64,000 nt of DNA from Candidatus Omnitrophota bacterium. Lineage in GTDB: Bacteria; Ratteibacteria; UBA8468; MWAK01. The position numbers were made by a program, and so were the translations under genes. The DNA lies in contig JBDRQI010000005.1 of the NCBI GenBank assembly GCA_043826355.1, forward strand, positions 48,678-112,677, written 5' to 3'. Below are positions 1,018-61,674 of the stretch, piece by piece. The notes below the pieces were generated by a model. It worked only from the letters and a program-made list of their open reading frames with translations. It was not told the DNA's origin and made no database searches. Position 1 is the stretch's first letter; every line of letters begins with the position of its first letter.

Positions 1018-1028
1018 ACAATTGTAGT

Positions 1029-1100
1029 CATTCCCACAGATAGTAAGTGGGAATCCAAACCAATAAGGTGTAGATTCCCGCCTACCACATGCGGGAATGA
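1029..1100. repeat. Tandem pair of family-A hairpin repeats (ATTCCCAC-N9-GTGGGAAT and ATTCCCGC-N9-GCGGGAAT)
   Basis: Inverted repeats read directly. The same composite recurs at 34285-34375; single copies lie at 31583, 51863 and 59782. Confidence 0.7.
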
Positions 1101-1126
1101 CAAATTATTTTTTACCGATGTATTAA

Positions 1127-2056: not shown

Positions 2057-2722
2057 TTAGGTACGTGTAGGCCTGGGGCCGAAAATACCGGTACCGATGC
2101 GCACCAGATTAGCGCCTTCCTCAATAGCCACCCGGTAAGAATCGCTCATACCCATCGAGAGATAACGCATCTCCGCGTTTGACGGAACAGAACTTTTAAG
2201 CCCTGCCCATAATGCCTTTGTCTCCTTAAAATACGGCCTTAAGTCCTCAGGGTTAATGCAAGTCGGCCCCATAGTCATTAACCCCATAATTTTTAGGTTG
2301 GAAAATCCGGAGATTTTTATGAGAAACGGCTCCACCTCTTCCGGCATCACGCCGAACTTCTGGGGTTCCCTTCCGCTGTTTACTTCAACAAAGATTTCTA
2401 TTTTCTTGCCGATGGCTCTGCTGCGGCGGTCAATCTCCGCGGCCATCTCCGGAGAATCAACCGTCTCAATGAGGTCAAAGAGCGCAACCGCTTTCTTTAT
2501 CTTGTTCTTCTGGAGATGGCCGATGAAATGCCAGGAAATTTTGCGGCCGACCGCTTGAAAATGGGCCTCTGCTTCCTGCAAGTAATTCTCGCCGATAATT
2601 CTCACCCCGGCTTCCACCGCCCCCAGGATTTCCGCCGGGCTCCGGCTTTTTGCCGCCGCAACCAATTCGCAACCGGCCGGCAGTTTTCCTAAAATCTCCT
2701 TTACGTTATCCGTAATGATCAT
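2057..2722 (-). CDS. yggS: YggS family pyridoxal phosphate homeostasis protein
   Basis: About 220 aa with an alanine-racemase N-terminal-like fold (VAAAKSRS...IGENYLQE...HFIGHLQ.NK). Confidence 0.8.
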   Translation of the reverse strand: MIITDNVKEILGKLPAGCELVAAAKSRSPAEILGAVEAGVRIIGENYLQEAEAHFQAVGRKISWHFIGHLQKNKIKKAVALFDLIETVDSPEMAAEIDRRSRAIGKKIEIFVEVNSGREPQKFGVMPEEVEPFLIKISGFSNLKIMGLMTMGPTCINPEDLRPYFKETKALWAGLKSSVPSNAEMRYLSMGMSDSYRVAIEEGANLVRIGTGIFGPRPTRT

Positions 2723-4662
2723 AGTATTAAATTTAACAATATCCCGGTCAAAAAAGCAACGGACAGGGTCAGAACCAATATTTTTGCCGTATCTTTTATC
2801 CCCATCTCTTTTAACAGAACGAAAAAGGTGGCCAGGCAGGGCAGGTACAAGACCAGAAAGGTGCTGGCCACGACCAGCTGTTTGGCGGAAAGGTTAAACG
2901 GCACCAGCAGCGCGATGGATATATCTTTTCTCAAAAAGCCCAGAAGCATGACCGAAGAGATTTCACCGGGCAGACCCAGCATCTTGACGATAACTGGTTC
3001 GAATGGCTTTGAAATAAATTCGATGATGCCGGCTATATCCAGGATATTCACGAAAAGGACGCCCAGCATAATCAGGGGAATCGCTTCAAAGATAAAACTT
3101 TTTACCCTCATCCAGAGTTTTTTCAGCAGCGGCAATATCCTCGGCATCTGATAGGCGGGGATTTCAACGAACAATTCGGGGGCCTCACCTTTCAACAACT
3201 TGTTAAGAACGGAACCGCTGATTACGGCTACAGCCAAAAGCGTCCCGAAAACGATGGCCAGATATCTCAAACCGTATTTTCCCAGGATACTCAAAATCAT
3301 CGCGCTTTGCGGCATGCAGGGGGCAATCATTATAATCAGCGTCAGCGCAATGACCTTCTCCCGGCGCGTCTCCAGAATTCTGGCAGAGAGCATCGCAGGA
3401 ACCTTGCAGCCCAAACCCAGGATTAACGGGATGGCGCCGTAACCGTGCAGGCCGAATTTATGCAGAATGTTGTCAAGCAAAACGGCCAGGCGGGGCAAAT
3501 ACCCTAAATCCTCCAGAAAACCCAGGACAAAATAAAAAGATAATATGTAAGGAAGCACGACGACAAAGGGAATGTAGATGCCGGTGGTAAGAACGCCGAA
3601 AGATTCCATAACACCATGGGTAGTCCCCAAAAATAAGTTCTGCAAAACACCCGGAGGAAGAAGAAATTTTACTGCGTCAGTAACCGCCGGATGATATACC
3701 CTGTTAAAGAACGGGTCAAGGATACGGGTTATCAGGCCTTCGCCCACAAACCTTATGACATAAAAAGTAAGCGCCAGAACGATAAAAGCGATGGGAAAAC
3801 CCGTCAAAGGCCTGATGCAGGCATCGGCCAGTTTCTCCAGGAAGGAAGGATGCTTGTGCACGGTCTTCTGGACATGGCCGCTGATTTCACCTATTAATTT
3901 CCATTTTTCGTCGTTCCCCGCCGGAATTTGCCGGGACGGGGCGCGCCGGGTGGAGATGGTTTCTTTAAACGCCTTTAAAAAATCTTTAATGCCTTCGCCG
4001 GTAACAGCCACAAAAGGAATTGTCTCTACCCCCACCCTCCGGGACAACCCCTCAAGGTCAATGCTGATGCCCTTCCATTTCGCCATATCCCACTTATTAA
4101 GCAGGATAATCGTGGGTATGCCTTTTTCCAATATTTGCAGCGAGAGATAAAGGTTTCTTTCCAGGTTGGTTGCGTCAACCACGTTTACGACCAGGTCCGG
4201 CTTTTCCCGCAACAACATTTCGGATGCCACTTCTTCCGCTTTATTGGTGGGTTCAAGGGTATACGCGCCGGGAACGTCGATAATCTTAATCCGCTCCTTC
4301 TCCACCCAGGCGGTGCCGGATGTATACTCAACGGTTGTTCCCGGATAATTTGAACAGATGGCATCCAGCCCGGTCAACCTGGAAAAGACCGCGCTCTTGC
4401 CCACGTTGGGGTTGCCCATCAAAAGAACTTTTATCTTTCTTACCTCCACCATTATCTTTTTGGCCATCCCGTATCCGACGGCGGACTTGGAACCGTCTAT
4501 TTCCAGCACCACCGGCCCGCCGCGGCTTGGTTCGTTTACCCTGCGAACCGTTTTACCAACCCGGATTCCCAAACTCTCCAGTTTCCGCCTTAAACCATGG
4601 CCGCCCTGCAGTTCTTTGATTATGCCCTGCTCGCCCGATTTTAATTCACTCAATGTAAGCAT
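2719..4662 (-). CDS. feoB: ferrous iron transporter FeoB with N-terminal FeoA domain fused
   Basis: FeoA-like SH3 domain in the first ~75 aa, then G-domain GNPNVGKS and DxxG, then a polytopic membrane domain. Confidence 0.9.
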   Translation of the reverse strand: MLTLSELKSGEQGIIKELQGGHGLRRKLESLGIRVGKTVRRVNEPSRGGPVVLEIDGSKSAVGYGMAKKIMVEVRKIKVLLMGNPNVGKSAVFSRLTGLDAICSNYPGTTVEYTSGTAWVEKERIKIIDVPGAYTLEPTNKAEEVASEMLLREKPDLVVNVVDATNLERNLYLSLQILEKGIPTIILLNKWDMAKWKGISIDLEGLSRRVGVETIPFVAVTGEGIKDFLKAFKETISTRRAPSRQIPAGNDEKWKLIGEISGHVQKTVHKHPSFLEKLADACIRPLTGFPIAFIVLALTFYVIRFVGEGLITRILDPFFNRVYHPAVTDAVKFLLPPGVLQNLFLGTTHGVMESFGVLTTGIYIPFVVVLPYILSFYFVLGFLEDLGYLPRLAVLLDNILHKFGLHGYGAIPLILGLGCKVPAMLSARILETRREKVIALTLIIMIAPCMPQSAMILSILGKYGLRYLAIVFGTLLAVAVISGSVLNKLLKGEAPELFVEIPAYQMPRILPLLKKLWMRVKSFIFEAIPLIMLGVLFVNILDIAGIIEFISKPFEPVIVKMLGLPGEISSVMLLGFLRKDISIALLVPFNLSAKQLVVASTFLVLYLPCLATFFVLLKEMGIKDTAKILVLTLSVAFLTGILLNLIL

Positions 4663-19058: not shown

Positions 19059-19105
19059 AAGGCCTCCTCTTTTTTATCTAATACGAACGCATTAAATCTT
19101 TTTAT

Positions 19106-19175
19106 GTAGGGGTCGGATTCATCCGACCCGCGGGCTTGATAAATCAAGCCCCTACAAAATCCTTATGTAAATTTA
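19106..19175. repeat. Family-B palindromic repeat (GTAGGGG...GCCCCTACAA..TGTAAATTTA)
   Basis: Nested hairpins ggtcggattcatccgacc and gggcttgataaatcaagccc. Related copies at 30557-30606 and 31495-31570. Confidence 0.65.
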
Positions 19176-22263: not shown

Positions 22264-22295
22264 AACAGGGGGCAGCCAAAAGACTGCCCCCTGTT
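22264..22295. terminator. perfect stem-loop (12-bp stem) between the DUF5320-fur unit and the peroxiredoxin gene
   Basis: aacagggggcag-ccaaaaga-ctgccccctgtt. Confidence 0.5.
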
Positions 22296-30556: not shown

Positions 30557-30606
30557 CCGCGGGCGGGGATGTAACCCCGCCCCTACAATTTATTGATGTA
30601 AATTTA
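30557..30606. repeat. Family-B palindromic repeat
   Basis: gcgggcggggatgtaaccccgcccctacaa...tgtaaattta. Confidence 0.65.
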
Positions 30607-31483: not shown

Positions 31484-31494
31484 GCGAGATTTTC

Positions 31495-31610
31495 GTAGGG
31501 GAGGGGTTATATCCCCGCCCGCGGGCTGAAAGTCCGCCTCAGGCGGGAGGGGACACAGTCCTTCCCCTACATTAAAAAATGGATTCCCGTTAACCATATA
31601 CGGGAATGAC
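31495..31610. repeat. Family-B repeat (inverted orientation) followed by a family-A hairpin
   Basis: gtaggggaggggttatatccccgcccgcgggc...cccctac, then attcccgt-N9-acgggaat. Confidence 0.6.
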
Positions 31611-31622
31611 AACGTTTTTGTA

Positions 31623-34284: not shown

Positions 34285-34375
34285 AAAAAATTCTGTCATA
34301 CCCGCGTGTAGTAAACGGGGATACAGGAAAAAGTTACGAGTAGTTTAGATTCCCGCTTACGACGTGCGGGAATGA
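34285..34375. repeat. Composite family-A hairpin repeat pair
   Basis: tcatacccgcgtgtagtaaacggggata then attcccgc-ttacgacgt-gcgggaat. Same architecture as 1029-1100. Confidence 0.65.
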
Positions 34376-34408
34376 TAATCTTTTACTAACTGTCAGTGCC
34401 AAGAATTA

Positions 34409-45510: not shown

Positions 45511-45702
45511 CAATCCCGTCCTTTATGATACCACAGAACACTTGCCGCAAGAAAGGCGCTAACATCTAAAATATGGTAAAATATTTGGTCGGTCGCACTG
45601 TTTTGCTGTTCACTTTAAATTTATCAGGGCGCAGCGCAGTCTGCCAGAGGCGAAGCTGAAGGGATATGAGAAGGGGCAAAACCTTTCTTAAATATTGGTT
45701 TC

Positions 45703-45776
45703 GGGGCGTAGCTCAGCTTGGCTAGAGCGCTTGGTTTGGGACCAAGAGGTCGCTGGTTCGAATCCAGTCGCCCCGA
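45703..45776 (+). tRNA. tRNA-Pro (anticodon TGG)
   Basis: Cloverleaf folded by eye: acceptor GGGGCGT/CGCCCCG, anticodon loop TTTGGGA, T-loop TTCGAAT. Confidence 0.85.
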
Positions 45777-49947: not shown

Positions 49948-49996
49948 TTAAAAATAGCGGTGCGATACATCGCGGCCCTACGCCACGGAGAAATTT

Positions 49997-50722
49997 ATGG
50001 TAAAAATAATTGCCCACCAAGGATTTTCCGGAAGGTATCCCGGAAATACGGAGATTGCGTTTCAGAAAGCCCTTGCCCTCAACGTCGATGCCGTTGAATT
50101 TGACGTTCACCTCTCCGCAGATGCAGCGTTAATCATATGCCACGACGGGGACGTGGACAGAACATCCGATGGTTCCGGTAAAATCAGTCAACTGACGCTG
50201 CCGGAAATTAAAAACTTGGACGCCGGCGGCTGGTTCGGAAAGGAATTTGAGAAACAGCGTTTTTTAACGCTTCAAGAAGCGCTTGATGTCCTCGGCACCA
50301 AAATCAGGCTTAACATCCACGTCAAGACCTATGAATTTGACCGGGAAAAAATAACGCCGCTAATCGTTAAGGAACTGGAACGCAGAAATCTCCTGCGCCA
50401 GGTGTTCATCGCCTCTGGCGAAGAAACGATTAAACTGGTCAAAAAGATTCAGCCGAAACTGGAAATCTGCAACCTTTCCAGGAAACCCGAAAACACTTAC
50501 ATTAAGCGTTCTCTCTCGGTCGGGTGCTACATCCTGCAGCCGGAAAATATACAAGTAAATCAATCATTCGTTGAAGAAGCCCACCGCCACGGTATGGAGG
50601 TCAACCCGTTTTACGCCGATGATATTGCCGAGATGCGCCGGCTGATTCAATGCGGGGTAGACGGAATATTAACGAATTACCCGGATGTGTTGTTAAGAGT
50701 CCGAAAGGCAATCTCCTCATAA
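49997..50722 (+). CDS. glycerophosphodiester phosphodiesterase
   Basis: HQGFSGRYPGNTEIAF...EFDVHLSADA...HD. Confidence 0.85.
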   Translation: MVKIIAHQGFSGRYPGNTEIAFQKALALNVDAVEFDVHLSADAALIICHDGDVDRTSDGSGKISQLTLPEIKNLDAGGWFGKEFEKQRFLTLQEALDVLGTKIRLNIHVKTYEFDREKITPLIVKELERRNLLRQVFIASGEETIKLVKKIQPKLEICNLSRKPENTYIKRSLSVGCYILQPENIQVNQSFVEEAHRHGMEVNPFYADDIAEMRRLIQCGVDGILTNYPDVLLRVRKAISS

Positions 50723-51245: not shown

Positions 51246-52619
51246 ATGAAATTCTATATCAGGACGTTCGGGTGCCAGATGAACCAGGCCGACAGCGCCT
51301 ACCTGTTCGGTCGCCTCATTGAGGCCGGGTACCGGAAGACGGAAGACCCGGAAGAGGCACAGGTCATCATCTTCAATACCTGCAGCGTCCGGCAACACGC
51401 AGAGGAGCGGCTCTTCCAAAACCTGAAAACGTTGCAGCCTCTGAAAAAGAAGAGGCCGGAGTTGATTATCGGCCTGATCGGTTGCATTCCGGCCCTGCGC
51501 CGGGAGATGCTGTTCCGCTCTTTCCCTTACCTTAATTTTCTGGCCGGTCCAGAAAGTCTGGCCATGATTCCGGACTTGATTTCCCGCAGTAAAAATGGCG
51601 CGCAGATTGCGGTCTTTGACTCCAAATTAGATTCCTATGCCTGCCCTCAAGCGCAAAGGAATATCAGCGCTTTTCTACCGATAATCATTGGCTGCGACAA
51701 CTTCTGCAGTTACTGCGTGGTACCACTTACCCGGGGCAGGGAAAAGAGCCGACCGGCCGAAGATATTCTGACAGAGGCGAAAAAAATGGTTTTCGGCGGC
51801 GTCAAAGAGATAATCCTCCTGGGTCAGAACGTCAATTCCTACCGGGAAACGACAGGGACGAGATTCCCGCTTACAACATGCGGGAATGACATCGTTTCGG
51901 GTCGGATAAATCCGCCCCCCGGAAATAAAGGGATCGAAATCGATTTTCCGGAACTCCTGTCCCGGATAGCCGGGCTATTCGGCATCTTGCGACTGGGTTT
52001 TATGACCTCCCACCCCAAGGACGTCTCCCCGAAACTTTTTAAAGTAATCGCCGAACATTCAAGCATCTATCGCCACCTGCACCTCCCCTTGCAGAGCGGT
52101 TCCGACTCCATCCTGCAGACAATGAACCGCGGCTACACCGCCGCCCATTACCGGCAGAGAATGGGAGAAGCCAGGGAAATTGTTCCCGGGTTGTCGCTCA
52201 CTTCGGATGTCATCGCGGGATTTCCGGGCGAAACGGAAGATGACTTTAATAAAACCTTATCGTTAATTGAGGAAATACAATTTGATGACTTGTTTGCCTT
52301 TAAATATTCGGACCGCCCCAAAACTAAAGCCGAAAGACTGGGCGGCAAGATTCCGGAAAAGACGAAAGAGGAACGCTTGGCCAAACTCTGGAAACTGCAG
52401 GACGGAATCTCCCTGAAAAAAAACCTGGAGATGAAAGGTAAAACTTGCGAAGTTCTCTTGCTGAGCGAGAGCTGGAAAAGACCGGGTTTCCTGATTGGCA
52501 AGACGGAAAATGGAAAGAAAATTCTCGTTTCGGAAAACGCAAAATCAGTCGGTTCTTTAGTTCGGGTTCAAATTACTTCGGTTGACCGCCGCCTGCTCTA
52601 CGGGGTTGCCGAAAAATAA
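51246..52619 (+). CDS. miaB: MiaB/RimO-family tRNA methylthiotransferase with an in-frame repeat-derived insertion
   Basis: MTTase N-terminal domain FGCQMN, radical SAM motif CDNFCSYC, C-terminal TRAM domain. About 33 extra codons at 51852-51950 carry the intergenic repeat families. Confidence 0.8.
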
Positions 52620-52633
52620 ACAGGACACGCGCC

Positions 52634-53665
52634 ATGAAAAATTTTACGGTTAAAGCCAAAATGATATGTACGCTCGGTCCGGCTTCATCAAGTGAAACTG
52701 TTATAAGAAAAATGATGCGCGCCGGCATGGATGTTGCGCGTCTTAACTTTTCGCACGGAAAACCCCAGGAATTGCTTCACAGAATAAAACTCGTCCGGCT
52801 TTTAAACACGAAACACCGCAGACGCATCAAACTTCTCGGCGACCTTCAGGGCCATCGGATAAGGATAGGCCAATTCGTTGCTCCGTTAGAGCTTAAAAAG
52901 CGCCGGATAGTTTGGCTTTCCCGCCAAAAGACAAAAAGCGAAAACGCAAAAATACCATTCGATTACCAGGGACCGTTAAGCGGCATTAAAAACGGCTGCC
53001 AAATATTTATAGACGACGGTAATATCGCTTTGGAAGTAATCGGCCGGTCTAAAAACAGCCTGAAGGCCCGGGTAATAGCCGGCGGGCTATTAAAGGAGCG
53101 CAAAGGCGTAAATATTCCGGGGGCACAGCTTGAGTTCGGCGGTATAAGCAAAAAAGACGCCCGGGATATACTTTTTTGCGAAAAAACCGGTGTTGAATAT
53201 ATTGCGCAGTCATTCGTGCGTACAAAAAAAGATATTTTAGAGGTAAGAAAACTTCTCCAGCCGGGTTCGTCCTGTCAGGTTATCGCTAAAATTGAATGCC
53301 GGGAAGGCATAAAAAATATTGACGATATAATCAAAGTTTCAGACGGCATTATGATTGCGCGCGGAGACATGGGCGTATCGCTCCCTGTTTACGAAATTCC
53401 TATTATTCAAAAGATGATTATCAAAAAATGCAATCGCGCCGGGAAATTTGTCATTACCGCCACCCAGATGCTTGAGAGTATGACGGATAACCTTCGCCCT
53501 ACCCGCGCAGAGGTAACAGACGTGGCAAACGCCATAATAGACGGCACTGATTTTGTGATGCTCTCGGCAGAGACGGCAGCGGGTAAATACCCCGCCGAAG
53601 CGGTTACGATGATGAATAATATAATAAAATTTACGGAAATAAATTCGAGTAAATTGTTTTTATAA
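52634..53665 (+). CDS. pyruvate kinase-like barrel-domain protein (no C-terminal domain, divergent active-site residues)
   Basis: NFSHG and MIARGDMG motifs present, but [12 protein letters not shown] replaces the canonical LDTKGPEIR; stops after the barrel. Confidence 0.55.
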
Positions 53666-53700
53666 GCACCCGGTTCAACGCCAACAAACACGGAGAAAAT

Positions 53701-56418
53701 ATGAAAGAATTAAAATGGTATCAGCATTCAATAACGGAAGTTCTTTCGCATCTCCAGGTTACGGAAACGGGGCTTGCCGAACAGGAGGCGCAGGCAAGGC
53801 TGGCTGAACACGGGCCAAACCAGTTGGAAGCAAAAAAGAAGGAAAGCCGGCTTTTAATCTTCATCAAGCAATTCAAAAGTCCGCTTATATACATTCTGTT
53901 ATTTGCCGCCTTGATATCGTTTTTTGTCGGTAAAACCGTCAACGCGCTGGTTATCCTTTTCGTTCTATTTTCCAACGCAATAATCGGTTTCATACAGGAA
54001 TCAAAAGCCCGGAGCACCATGGATTCCCTCAAGGAACTCTCTTCGCCAAAAGCCAGAGTAATGCGCGCGGGTGAAGAAACGGAGATACCCACCAAAGACA
54101 TCGTGCCGGGAGATATCATCCTGGTGGAATCGGGAAGCAGGGTTCCTGCGGACGCGCGGATTATTGAGTCGGTAAGGCTCCAGATCGATGAAGCGGCGCT
54201 TACCGGAGAATCCCAGCCGGTCTATAAAATCATTGATTCCATCAAACTGGAAACCACGGTTGCCGACCGGCTGAACATGCTCTTTGCCGGAACGGTTGTC
54301 GCCTCGGGCCGGGGCAAGGCGGTGGTCATCTCCACGGGCATGAATACGGAAATCGGCAAAATTGCCGGCATTATTCAATCGGAACCGGAGACCAGAACTC
54401 CGCTCCAGCGCCGCATGGAGGCTTTCGGCAAGGTTATCATCTTTATCGTCCTAGCGCAGGTAACCTTTGCATTTATCGTCGGATGGGTTCTGCGGGGTCT
54501 GCCGTTTTACGAGATATTCCTGGTTGTCTTAAGCCAGACGGTCTCTTCCATACCGGAAGGCCTGCCGGTGGCGGTAACGGTGGCCCTGGCGGTAGGCATG
54601 CAGAGAATGGCAAAAAAGAAGGCTTTTATCAGGAAACTGGCGGCGGTGGAAGGGTTGGGCAGCGCCACTATTATTTGCAGCGATAAAACCGGAACCCTTA
54701 CGAAGAACGAGATGACTTCGCGGCGTCTGGCCACCATGAAGCAAACAATAGAAATAACCGGAGCCGGATACCGGCCTCAGGGTAAATTCTTATTAGACGG
54801 CAACGAAATAAACCCGCTTGAAAATAAAGAAATAAACCTGCTTCTCAAAACAGCTTCTCTCTGCAATAATGCCCAGTGGAAGGAGAGGCCGGATGATGAC
54901 GGCGGGGTAAAAAGTTCGGGAGACCCGACGGAAATCGCTTATCTGGTAACGGCCGTTAAAGCCGGAATTAGCCCGGATAAACTTAATGAAGAATTTCCCA
55001 GAATCGATGAAATTCCTTTTGAGTCCCATATTCAGATGATGGCAACCAGGAATAGGTCGGGTGATAATAAAAATATGATCTCGGTCAAGGGCGCTCCGGA
55101 AAAGATTGCGGACCTTTGCGGGTATTATCTTCAAGACGATAAAACAACGGAATTAACCGATTCTCTGCGCAAGGAAATATTATTACGTTCGGAGAAAATG
55201 GCCAAGGATGCGCTCCGGGTTTTAGCTTTCGGTTTCAGCGAAGAAGACAACGCGCCGGGCGGCGCATTTGACTGGGATTCTTTAAAAAGAAAAATTGTTT
55301 TCGCGGGCTTAATCGGCAATATTGACCCGCCGCGGCCGGAAGCCAGAGAAGCGATAAAAATATGCAAAAACGCAGGTATTAAAATAGCGATGATTACCGG
55401 AGACCATCTCTCCACGGCCGAAGCGGTGGCGGTTGAATTGGGCATAATGGAAAAGGGCGACGAAGGCATTGCCGGTGACCTATTAGACAATATGACCGAA
55501 AAAGAATTAGAAGAGGTGGTGACAAATTTCACGGTCTTCGCCCGAATCGAGCCGAAACACAAATACCTGATAGTCAAGGCCCTGCAGAAACACGAAGTGG
55601 TGGCCATGACCGGCGACGGGGTAAACGACGCGCCGGCTTTGGCGGCGGCCGATATCGGGGTGGCCATGGGGATAACCGGCACCGACGTGGCCAAGGAATC
55701 GAGCAGTATGGTTATCGCCGACGATAATTTTGCCACTATCGTGGATGCGGTTGAAGAAGGCCGGGGCATAACCGCCAACATGCGCAAAACCATCCTGTAT
55801 CTTCTCTGTTCCAGCAGCACCGAAATTTTAGTCCTGCTGACCACCCTGGCCATCGGGGTGCCTTTACCGTTATTTGCCCTGCAGATTTTATGGATAAACC
55901 TCGTTACCGACGGCGCCCTTACGGTTAACTTGATTATGGAGCCGAAAGAGGAGGTAATGAACCATCCGCCGGATAAGAAAAATGAACTTTTGCTGAACAA
56001 GAGGTTGATGGGGCTGCTGATTTTCCGCGCTTCCATTATGGCGGCGGGAATAATCGGACTCTTTATTTACGAGTTGACCAGGGGTATGCCTTTAATCTAT
56101 TGCCGCAGCGTTGCCTTTACGACGCTGGCGGTTACCCAATGGCTGAACGGAATCAACTGCCGTTCCACTACAAAATCTATCTTTAAAATGCCGTTTTTAG
56201 GCAATAAGTACTTGATTGCCGGCCTGACGGCGGCAATAATCTTACAGATATCGGTTATTTATATTCCTTTTCTGCAGAATATCTTTTCTACGGTTACGCT
56301 TGATTCAACGGACTGGATTAAAATCTTACTGGTGGGCAGCGGCGTATTCTGGCTGGAAGAGGTGCGGAAATTCATCGCCGGCCGCCGCCTTTCCGGCGCA
56401 AACGAAAATTTAAGATAA
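53701..56418 (+). CDS. cation-translocating P-type ATPase (Ca2+-type, P2)
   Basis: DKTGTLT, TGDHLSTA, GDGVNDAPAL; 905 aa. Confidence 0.9.
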   Translation: MKELKWYQHSITEVLSHLQVTETGLAEQEAQARLAEHGPNQLEAKKKESRLLIFIKQFKSPLIYILLFAALISFFVGKTVNALVILFVLFSNAIIGFIQESKARSTMDSLKELSSPKARVMRAGEETEIPTKDIVPGDIILVESGSRVPADARIIESVRLQIDEAALTGESQPVYKIIDSIKLETTVADRLNMLFAGTVVASGRGKAVVISTGMNTEIGKIAGIIQSEPETRTPLQRRMEAFGKVIIFIVLAQVTFAFIVGWVLRGLPFYEIFLVVLSQTVSSIPEGLPVAVTVALAVGMQRMAKKKAFIRKLAAVEGLGSATIICSDKTGTLTKNEMTSRRLATMKQTIEITGAGYRPQGKFLLDGNEINPLENKEINLLLKTASLCNNAQWKERPDDDGGVKSSGDPTEIAYLVTAVKAGISPDKLNEEFPRIDEIPFESHIQMMATRNRSGDNKNMISVKGAPEKIADLCGYYLQDDKTTELTDSLRKEILLRSEKMAKDALRVLAFGFSEEDNAPGGAFDWDSLKRKIVFAGLIGNIDPPRPEAREAIKICKNAGIKIAMITGDHLSTAEAVAVELGIMEKGDEGIAGDLLDNMTEKELEEVVTNFTVFARIEPKHKYLIVKALQKHEVVAMTGDGVNDAPALAAADIGVAMGITGTDVAKESSSMVIADDNFATIVDAVEEGRGITANMRKTILYLLCSSSTEILVLLTTLAIGVPLPLFALQILWINLVTDGALTVNLIMEPKEEVMNHPPDKKNELLLNKRLMGLLIFRASIMAAGIIGLFIYELTRGMPLIYCRSVAFTTLAVTQWLNGINCRSTTKSIFKMPFLGNKYLIAGLTAAIILQISVIYIPFLQNIFSTVTLDSTDWIKILLVGSGVFWLEEVRKFIAGRRLSGANENLR

Positions 56419-59767: not shown

Positions 59768-59781
59768 AATTATTTTCTGTC

Positions 59782-59806
59782 ATTCCCGCATGCATTAAGC
59801 GGGAAT
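59782..59806. repeat. family-A hairpin repeat
   Basis: attcccgc-atgcattaa-gcgggaat. Confidence 0.65.
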
Positions 59807-59818
59807 CTCTAATTTAGG

Positions 59819-60406: not shown

Positions 60407-60480
<74 letters not shown>

Positions 60481-60494
60481 CAACCTCCTGCTTT

Positions 60495-61599: not shown

Positions 61600-61674
61600 T
61601 CCGGCGTAGCGCAACGGTAGCGCGGCTGGCTGTTAACCAGTAGGTTGTAGGTTCGAATCCTACCGCCGGAGCCA
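61600..61674 (+). tRNA. tRNA-Asn (anticodon GTT), CCA encoded
   Basis: Acceptor TCCGGCG/CGCCGGA, anticodon loop CTGTTAA, T-loop TTCGAAT, 3' GCCA. Confidence 0.8.

Follow-up and report, generated by a model that had tools for sequence, protein, structure and literature searches.

Repeat-derived DNA inside the miaB gene of a Candidatus Omnitrophota bacterium

Why does a tRNA-modification gene carry, within its reading frame, a segment that resembles the repeats lying between its neighboring genes, and does the gene still work? The gene is miaB, encoding the tRNA ms2i6A37 methylthiotransferase (51246..52619, plus strand, 457 aa, ATG at 51246 and stop at 52619). It lies in a 64,000-nt stretch of DNA, hereafter the window, from a Candidatus Omnitrophota bacterium (assembly GCA_043826355.1, contig JBDRQI010000005.1, positions 48,678-112,677 of the forward strand). 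An earlier note on this DNA had pointed to a repeat-like segment directly after LLGQNVNSY in the MiaB open reading frame (ORF), and our analysis bears this out. With a probability of about 0.78, we read the insert as selfish repeat DNA that was fixed within a gene that still works: a dimer of repetitive extragenic palindromes (REPs), with a second hairpin nested in it, in a loop of the protein that tolerates the extra length.

Two hairpin families in one reading frame

The window MiaB has a loop of 34 residues between Y199 and F234, straight after LLGQNVNSY and before the conserved FPELL, where the closest insert-free orthologues (75-82% identical) have 8. The net surplus over the empty alleles is 26 aa (78 nt), smaller than the ~99 nt and 33 extra residues first proposed. 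Against the solved MiaB of Bacteroides uniformis (7mjv), window residues 201-228 are unaligned, 28 residues facing 5. Codon comparison, pairwise and PDB alignments and the predicted local distance difference test (pLDDT) of a structural model place the whole inserted block at 51846..51926 on the plus strand, where it encodes E201..N227. It consists of a leader GAAACG (51846-51851), which is common to all filled alleles, a repeat-derived core (51852-51922) and a trailer AAAT (51923-51926), also common to filled alleles, all on the plus strand. The stretch 51927-51950 that follows is ordinary fast-evolving loop sequence outside the repeat block. The reading frame is kept, as had been noted, and no stop codon is introduced.

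The proposal that the segment matches two intergenic repeat families, here called A and B, was upheld. The sequence GATTCCCGCTTACAACATGCGGGAATGA (51862-51889) matches the window again at 1073, 34348 and 59780 (minus strand) with 2-3 mismatches, where 0 matches are expected from shuffles. The window contains the pattern ATTCCCGC-N9-GCGGGAAT exactly 4 times, and 100 shuffles gave none. The identity to family A, put at 28/32 in the earlier note, amounts to 26/28 in the core and to 83-86% across 36 nt. With its flanks taken in, family A has five clear copies in the window in addition to degenerate ones. A covariance model, R1, built from 13 intergenic family-A copies of the window and related loci, with the in-gene copies left out, and run unfiltered, gave 51857-51893 a score of 50.9 bits (E~4e-14), and six intergenic members scored 49-55 bits. 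For family B, GGTCGGATAAATCCGCCCC matches 19110-19128 (minus strand) with 2 mismatches (17/19 identical). A second model, R2, built from 39 distinct GTAG-unit copies taken from unrelated metagenome contigs only, gave 51898-51918 a score of 18.6 bits (E~0.002) for the hairpin core alone. Taken alone, the family-B likeness of the segment is thus modest; what makes the assignment convincing is mainly that an intact GTAG-hairpin-GC-hairpin-CTAC dimer stands at the same codon in four orthologues.

That weak family-B score is what would favor a native, lineage-specific loop or an assembly error whose likeness to the repeats is coincidental. We find this scarcely credible. The family-A part reaches its score under a model that excludes the window copy, the segment has miaB on both flanks and in frame, and orthologues have at the same codon either intact repeat dimers or nothing, with no orthologue carrying a non-repeat version of the segment. 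An assembly artefact finds no support either: contig L088 of the independent Logan assembly (possibly from the same reads) matches the window at 100% identity along 13,525 nt that take in the insert, repeats stand at the same codon in orthologues from other samples, and the insert has no exact word longer than 16 nt in common with the rest of the window.

Both families are palindromic, and their stems vary in paired fashion. Family A has an 8-bp stem with a 9-nt loop, in the form GTKTRG-ATTCCCGN-TTAnnnCAT-NCGGGAAT-GACA, and some copies have a clean GTAG head; its units often lie in inverted doublets ~20 nt apart. Family B has a 9-bp stem with a 2-nt loop, and its intact form (19102-19159) is GTAG-GGGnnnGAT-nn-ATCnnnCCC-GC-GGGnnnGAT-nn-ATCnnnCCC-CTAC, two tail-to-tail hairpins with outward GTAG heads and a 2-bp spacer.

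Set against the intact dimers, the window insert can be dissected on the plus strand as follows. The decayed head and 5' arm of a left family-B hairpin (51852..51865) read ACAGGGACGAGATT, where the intact dimers of the orthologues P0003 and P0008 have GTAGGGGCTCGATT; the alignment shows the left GTAG head mutated to ACAG. The family-A unit (51857..51893) follows, with the stem 51863-51870/51880-51887 (ATTCCCGC/GCGGGAAT), the loop TTACAACAT and a 3' tail GACA, and ~24 nt of it are surplus to the dimer and sit in the loop of the left family-B hairpin. The 3' arm of that hairpin survives as the remnant ATCGTTTC (51891..51898; ATCGAACC or ATCGAGCC in intact dimers), which pairs, in the RNA fold, with the upstream GGGACGA by means of G-U pairs or, in the DNA fold, with GAAACGA. 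The right family-B hairpin (51899..51918, GGGTCGGAT-AA-ATCCGCCCC) has one T:C mismatch and differs at 1/20 nt from that of P0002 and P0008 at the same site. The decayed 3' head (51919..51922) reads CCGG where intact dimers have CTAC, and in the fold 51918-51922 pairs with 51842-51846, closing a three-way junction. The lengths agree with this anatomy, as +24 nt for the family-A hairpin and -3 nt nearby give +21 nt, or seven codons, beyond the dimer-bearing alleles. Two repeat families are therefore present, as first suggested, in the form of one dimer with a nested family-A hairpin and not side by side. Since the GTAG tag is lost at the head positions, which read ACAG, CGAG and CCGG, the window copy is best read as a decayed derivative and not as an intact member of the GTAG-tagged class.

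Outside miaB, all strong copies are intergenic although ~91% of the window is in ORFs; the 64 kb hold at least seven family-A and seven family-B-type units, all of them between ORFs except the miaB copy. Inverted doublets of family A lie at 1024..1104 (1024-1060 on the minus strand and 1068-1104 on the plus strand, the latter with a GTAG head; R1 49.5 and 55.5 bits) and at 34292..34379 (a degenerate unit at 34292-34328 on the minus strand and an intact one at 34343-34379 on the plus strand; R1 26.3 and 51.2 bits), and in related loci at L002 3498-3566, L090 1666-1734 and L090 14646-14714. A further family-A unit is found at 59776..59812 (minus strand, R1 49.2 bits). The intact family-B dimer at 19102..19159, GTAG-GGGTCGGATTCATCCGACCC-GC-GGGCTTGATAAATCAAGCCC-CTAC, scores 44.1 and 46.4 bits with R2, a single B-type unit at 30557..30590 (minus strand, GTAGGGGCGGGG..CCCCGCCCGC) 28.9 bits, and a degenerate one at 49955..49985 (minus strand) 23.7 bits (E~6e-5). 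At 31491..31613, a B-type dimer (31491-31574; R2 23.0 and 17.1 bits) is followed by a family-A unit (31577-31613; R1 50.3 bits), so the two families are neighbors outside genes too. The GTAG tag is present in intergenic copies (GTAG at 1070 and 19106, with GTGG and TTAG variants) and in the in-gene dimers of P0002, P0003, P0008 and P0011, and the tail-to-tail arrangement with its GC spacer is common to 19102-19159 and the orthologous miaB genes.

The host protein and the alleles of its relatives

The window protein is recognized as MiaB by NCBIfam TIGR01574 at 431 bits against a cut-off of 355, and it has the three-domain architecture of Pfam UPF0004, Radical_SAM and TRAM. Its CxxxCxxC motif (CDNFCSYC) and N-terminal Cys triad are undamaged; both motifs are kept, with zero internal stops, in every allele compared. 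The ratio of nonsynonymous to synonymous substitution rates (dN/dS) is 0.11-0.20 at dS 0.2-0.6 for filled and empty alleles alike (two variable loops excluded), as under purifying selection; for the window gene set against its orthologues it is 0.14-0.20. By (beta/alpha) barrel topology, the loop holding the insert is on the C-terminal, catalytic face of the barrel. An AlphaFold2 model made from a 114-sequence alignment has a mean pLDDT of 91.3 and falls below 50 over a long stretch only at residues 204-227, between the strand 188-192 and the helix 234-242. The model superposes on the solved MiaB-RNA complexes 7mjx and 7mjv with template modeling (TM) scores of 0.88-0.92 and root-mean-square deviations of 2.5-2.9 Å. 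Because dN/dS is low, the Cys motifs are intact and only the insert is disordered in the model, miaB with its insert looks functional, and it is plausible that the extra peptide is neutral.

Alignment with orthologues, the check proposed in the earlier note, confirmed the insertion: in a codon-level comparison of 10 orthologous miaB genes, to which pairwise alignments were added, relatives are empty or carry repeat units. The closest relatives are Candidatus Omnitrophota MiaBs with 68-82% identity and conserved synteny. The insertion site, hereafter site 1, is empty in P0004, P0005, P0006, P0010, P0012, P0014 and all outgroups, which read Y-[RQ]-D-x5-7-F. An intact family-B dimer (gaa acg GTAGGGG...CCCCTAC a aat, read as VGARFIEPAGRINPTPT) occupies it in P0002, P0003, P0008 and P0011, and these in-gene units score 37-45 bits with R2, as full members of the family. 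The window has the composite of decayed dimer and family-A hairpin, and aligns to the intact dimers on either side of the ~24-nt surplus that is the family-A hairpin. P0009 has the family-A hairpin without the right family-B hairpin: compared with the window, its hairpin differs at 1/30 nt and the left flank is common, and 39 nt including the right hairpin are missing. P0007 keeps only the leader and trailer of the filled alleles, being a filled allele minus exactly 48 nt (TAGGGG...CCCCTA). Its breakpoints fall between G and TAG and between CTA and C; RAYTs (REP-associated tyrosine transposases) are reported to cut at flanking CT or CA, and as RAYT cuts these breakpoints are suggestive only.

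The clearest presence/absence difference is between P0003 (dimer) and P0010 (empty), near-identical genes with long stretches 100% identical. The stretch bounded by identical TACCGGG and TTTTCTGGAA measures 76 nt in P0003, dimer included, and 19 nt in P0010, a difference of 57 nt. A frameshift with compensation in the P0003 flank was considered as a reading and is not claimed. The two genes (L084 83-1450 and L092 206-1609) also form a mosaic, with ~450 nt downstream of site 1 virtually identical, scattered differences in the 5' third and the 3' end, and a difference at a second loop (site 2, below); this suggests recombination between lineages within the gene.

We infer the following history from these states, with the dimer first and the nested hairpin later. 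An ancestor would have gained a GTAG REP tail-to-tail dimer of 50 nt with a ~7-nt leader, together 57 nt or 19 codons, landing in the codons for the loop after the GQNVNSY strand of the MiaB radical-SAM barrel. A smaller family-A hairpin (~24 nt, 8 codons) would later have entered the loop of the left REP hairpin on the branch of the window, probably before the window and P0009 parted. Both GTAG heads would then have been destroyed by a 3-nt deletion and point changes, leaving a copy that is probably past mobilization. The insert would have survived as an in-frame segment, with no stop in the frame used, that forms a disordered surface loop at a length-tolerant site; MiaB would stay active because the insert is in frame, stop-free and placed in a projecting loop at such a site. 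The extra peptide would then be neutral.

Several observations weigh against this history or blur it. The inner clade of the orthologue tree is a star with bootstrap values of 5-56%, except for P0003 and P0010 (99%, dS 0.19), so that one gain with losses or recombination appears inseparable from repeated gains. The insertion boundaries and any target duplication are ambiguous in the pairs P0003/P0010 and P0008/P0004, as the loop flanks evolve fast. With the RayT protein of E. coli as query, tblastn gave no RAYT either in the window or in 13 related loci (~110 kb, a small part of the genomes), a negative that carries little weight for a single-copy gene. Finally, the in-gene hairpins outlast 4-fold degenerate sites and their stem pairs co-vary at a cost in amino acids, neither of which pure neutrality predicts.

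Hairpin conservation and reuse of the MiaB loops

This last point calls for a closer comparison. Between orthologues, the family-B dimer differs at 1/50 to 11/50 nt against 20-28% at 4-fold sites, and the next 24 nt of loop DNA after the dimer are 29-50% diverged. The family-A core differs between the window and P0009 at 1/30 nt against 32% at 4-fold sites (P~2e-4). Selection on the hairpin, conversion from other copies or re-insertion could each produce this pattern.

One explanation is selection on the nucleic acid itself, which would keep the hairpins in the gene; the insert would then be domesticated and not merely tolerated. As a three-way-junction mRNA or a DNA hairpin, it might slow the ribosome between the radical-SAM halves, affect mRNA stability or serve as a protein-binding site. 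The low divergence of the dimer and of the family-A core fits this explanation, as do paired stem changes, namely C-G to T-A via a C:A intermediate and, in P0011, G-C to C-G, which alters the amino acids R to P and I to M. The window insert also folds better than shuffles (z = -3.6 as RNA, z = -3.1 as DNA), and its decayed left arm pairs through G-U alone, i.e., on the sense strand only. However, many close orthologues and all outgroups lack any insert, both GTAG heads are gone from the window copy, whose stem also has a mismatch, and P0007 and P0009 have suffered deletions. The in-gene stem variants (TCG/CGA, CTC/GAG, TTC/GAA) are sub-families that circulate in the intergenic copies, so what looks like compensatory evolution could come from replacement or gene conversion. 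For most pairs the binomial tests are of modest strength (P~0.04-0.2), a terminator and promoter scan across miaB found no terminator-like site in the insert, and an Rfam scan of the whole window returned no family for the repeats. We therefore give domestication an outside chance, one that we take seriously, and prefer a tolerated selfish insert. If the slow evolution of the hairpins relative to synonymous sites reflected selection and not conversion, these elements would be more than passengers.

Site 1 is also not the only place in MiaB where such DNA is found. Among 114 MiaBs, rare internal insertions are almost confined to the site 1 loop and the linker between UPF0004 and radical SAM (site 2). 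Site 2 is native in the window (51606-51680). Eight Omnitrophota orthologues have, in place of the linker NSYSCPQAQK, an in-frame set of one to three nested hairpins rich in G+C (CCTCCCCC..GGGGGAGG, CCCTTTCC..GGAAAGGG), read as LPPHLTSPxRGEE or PFPKLWKG. Such inserts lie at L084 443-535, L085 691-783, L087 4449-4571, L002 10328-10453 and L090 10412-10537, and intergenic relatives of these hairpins are present in the same contigs. For annotation, the repeats thus explain odd low-complexity peptides such as LPPHLTSPxRGEE in metagenomic proteins.

When genome contigs were scanned with the MiaB protein, the matches were almost all distant MiaBs (~40%), mostly of Clostridia, apart from one partial Omnitrophota locus (L004). 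Distant MiaBs of ~40-45% identity (P0063, P0067, P0065, P0069, P0110) have unrelated palindrome-like peptides at site 1, that of P0069 being GTAG..CTAC-like at the protein level. For P0065 the DNA (L214, a contig of 42% G+C) has a site 1 hairpin with a folding free energy (dG) of -40.7 kcal/mol and a related hairpin at site 2; strong CCCCCC..GGGGGG hairpins stand in frame at both MiaB loops (L214 4350-4451 and 4056-4097). A neighboring 1026-aa ORF in L214 has two more in-frame copies (NPPSPPF[VN]KGG.., 1002-1022/1227-1247). As background, the site 1 loop has a median of 9 aa and a maximum of 23 in 75 distant loci, mostly Clostridia.

Such reuse might mean that the loop was struck independently several times, by separate insertions into a targeted hot spot and not by one ancestral insertion followed by nesting and loss. 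The conserved Ser-Tyr codons TCC TAC, for example, contain both CTAC, which is complementary to the GTAG guide, and a CT at which cleavage could occur, and TCC TAC stands ahead of the site in 7/9 orthologues. The unrelated palindromes in the same loop of the distant MiaBs (verified in the DNA of P0065), the second loop struck by other hairpin families in eight orthologues and the scarcity of other internal positions with insertions in the 114 MiaBs all agree with it. Against it, the filled Omnitrophota alleles, including P0007, the window and the altered P0009, share the leader GAAACG, the trailer AAAT or AAAC, the orientation and the frame; therefore common descent is favored within this clade. 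The distant cases are non-GTAG palindromes for which a permissive loop suffices without targeting, and P0002 and P0009 have TCC TAT. Independent strikes within the clade thus have a slim chance at best, and a single ancestral dimer with later nesting and loss is the better account.

A broader version seems to us decidedly unlikely. In it, the site 1 loop and the linker form a cross-phylum hot spot that actively attracts hairpins, with TCC TAC as the lure for a RAYT in the case of GTAG REPs, and the copies are then kept at the nucleic-acid level by selection or by REP-specific conversion and do not drift neutrally as coding DNA. If it were true, the in-gene copies would belong to an mRNA or DNA structure with a function in a gene for tRNA modification. 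A permissive loop explains the reuse of the sites, and targeting of the MiaB loop is possible; both the conservation of the in-gene hairpins and the reuse of the loop across phyla deserve a proper test.

Known repeat systems and a candidate mobilizing enzyme

The features of the two families match those published for the GTAG-tagged REP superfamily (PMC3733652; Di Nocera, De Gregorio and Rocco 2013, BMC Genomics 14:522): G+C-rich stem-loops tagged with GTAG, head-to-head and tail-to-tail dimers, and sub-families with complementary stem changes. The stems and loops of families A and B fall within the limits of this class, 5-13 bp and 2-20 nt, for which GYAG and GTRG count as tags besides GTAG. 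GTAG REPs lie mostly in intergenic regions between unidirectional or convergent genes, with a minority inside ORFs, and more than half of the intragenic ones come as dimers or in groups that encode 20-30 aa. The paper also describes genes with two insertions and REPs at about the same site in recB of two Xanthomonas species, and the host genes include those of tRNA-modifying and RNA-binding enzymes. The heaviest load is carried by O. terrae, a bacterium of the PVC superphylum, with tail-to-tail dimers separated by 1-2-bp spacers, and neutral insertion in flexible loops is the explanation proposed (PMC3733652).

The phenomenon itself is therefore already published, and what the present locus adds is the nested composite, the allelic series and the recurrent use of two MiaB loops. 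Omnitrophota and miaB are absent from the hosts listed in the main text of PMC3733652, and a full-text literature search found no report of such inserts in MiaB or Omnitrophota. Unlike the published intragenic GTAG REPs, the window copy is composite: a hairpin of another family is nested in one arm's loop, and both tags are lost. The case extends intragenic GTAG REPs to an uncultured phylum and is well bracketed, with relatives that preserve the empty state, the intact dimer, the nested composite, a partial deletion and a clean loss; small selfish hairpins have here added a peptide to an enzyme of an essential type without, as it seems, breaking it.

The earlier note had likened the insert to in-frame palindromic insertions of Rickettsia and cyanobacteria. 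The comparison with Rickettsia palindromic elements (RPEs) is apt as an analogy, since both are in-frame palindromes in a loop of a working host gene, and the closer match is with intragenic GTAG REP dimers. RPEs were reportedly described by Ogata et al. in 2000; those of the RPE-1 type are ~100-150 bp long and are not known outside Rickettsia. The units of the window, unlike these, measure 25-50 nt and belong to a GTAG-tagged family, a distinction of size and tag. The small dispersed repeats of cyanobacteria may likewise resemble the insert. Related Rickettsia species also show presence and absence of the elements, and the extra peptide reportedly lies in surface loops, according to work cited in PMC3733652; the short RPE-4 and RPE-6 are of the CGTC-tagged class and not of the GTAG class (PMC3733652).

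[quoted passage not shown] The 25-50-nt units of the window have none of these hallmarks, and no consistent direct repeat flanks the insert in comparisons of filled and empty alleles. Even so, MITEs found in frame (Nezha, Chunjie and those of Coxiella; PMC5896051, PMC3184786) are like the insert in being tiny palindromes that can nest and that stand in frame in coding regions. The REPIN/RAYT system provides a further comparison (Bertels and Rainey 2011, PMC3116915; Nunvar et al. 2010, PMC2817692; Corneloup et al. 2021, PMC8266576): inverted REP doublets behave as the mobile unit, and a single-copy HUH tyrosine transposase recognizes GTAG together with the hairpin. In REPINs the two REPs usually stand farther apart than the 2 bp seen here. 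To our knowledge, REP mobility in vivo has not been shown in any system.

Public metagenomes were scanned for the family-B half-unit, its three middle stem positions being free to vary, and at least 86 copies came up on contigs of 31%-72% G+C. Among the copies listed, the free stem pairs are Watson-Crick in 239/258 (93%) against 25% expected, in more than a dozen stem variants, so that the unit GTAG-GGGnnnGAT..ATCnnnCCC-GC is, on this pairing evidence, a real cross-phylum hairpin family. Most of these copies (77/86 among the matches listed) lie outside long open frames, and the remaining 9/86 are flagged in long open frames, mostly on high-G+C contigs, where most such frames are probably spurious. 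On contig L125, around 446 on the minus strand, a single GTAG unit, GTAGGGGCGCGATTAATCGCGCCCGC, stands in frame (VGARLIAPA) in an open frame that exceeds 2000 codons and contains GGLAGY-type repeats; this unit may be another intragenic REP. Family A looks lineage-restricted because it was not found in 80 metagenome contigs carrying family-B units.

One of the unrelated metagenome contigs, L096 (JGI Ga0105104_10017974), ties this type of GTAG unit to a RAYT. It encodes a RAYT-like ORF (2285-3025; NF047646, E 5e-18, 65 bits, below the cut-off of 80) with HUH and YYEH motifs, and the link is drawn because this ORF lies exactly between two copies of GTAGGGGCACGATATATCGTGCCCGC (locus 2251-3047). 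By analogy, we infer that the mobilizing enzyme in the lineage of the window would be a RAYT-type HUH tyrosine transposase. RAYTs bind single-stranded REP hairpins with GTAG as a guide and cleave at flanking CT or CA (PMC8266576; PMC2817692). By these published requirements, the window copy should no longer be a RAYT substrate, because both its GTAG heads are lost. The RAYT-like gene of L096 is itself interrupted between the HUH and Tyr motifs by three in-frame hairpin copies in ~96-nt tandem units (TGTIYRAPTREGFG...), so that the transposase gene appears to be colonized by its own REP.

Further GTAG- or CTAC-tagged hairpin families occur in the related genomes, in the forms GACAGGCG-nnn-CGCCTGTC-CTAC and GCGACCCT-nnn-AGGGTCGC (L002 9873-9891, 11822-11844 and 14679-14701; L084 24-42 and 1928-1946; L085 5117-5135; L090 20055-20073, 1559-1577 and 9889-9907). 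Orthologous intergenic sites hold different families in each genome, as after trkA in the window, L002 and L090, which indicates that the intergenic hairpin families turn over rapidly. In the window, a perfect 12-bp hairpin, AACAGGGGGCAG...CTGCCCCCTGTT, unrelated to families A and B, is found between genes at 22264-22295 and could be a terminator or another type of repeat. The sole matches of the Rfam scan are three tRNA genes, at 45702-45776 (+), 60408-60481 (-) and 61600-61671 (+).

The genes beside miaB differ among relatives as well. Extra genes flank miaB on both sides in the window and in L088 (window positions 52634-56418 and 49997-50722) when these are set against L002, L003 and L090, the orthologous loci. 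A pyruvate-kinase-like gene and a 905-aa P-type ATPase separate miaB from the trkH/trkA block, and the upstream addition is a GDPD-family gene. In other relatives, the junctions flanking miaB are occupied by genes for toxin-antitoxin, AbiE or restriction-modification systems. Judged by gene content, the miaB neighborhood is a variable region.

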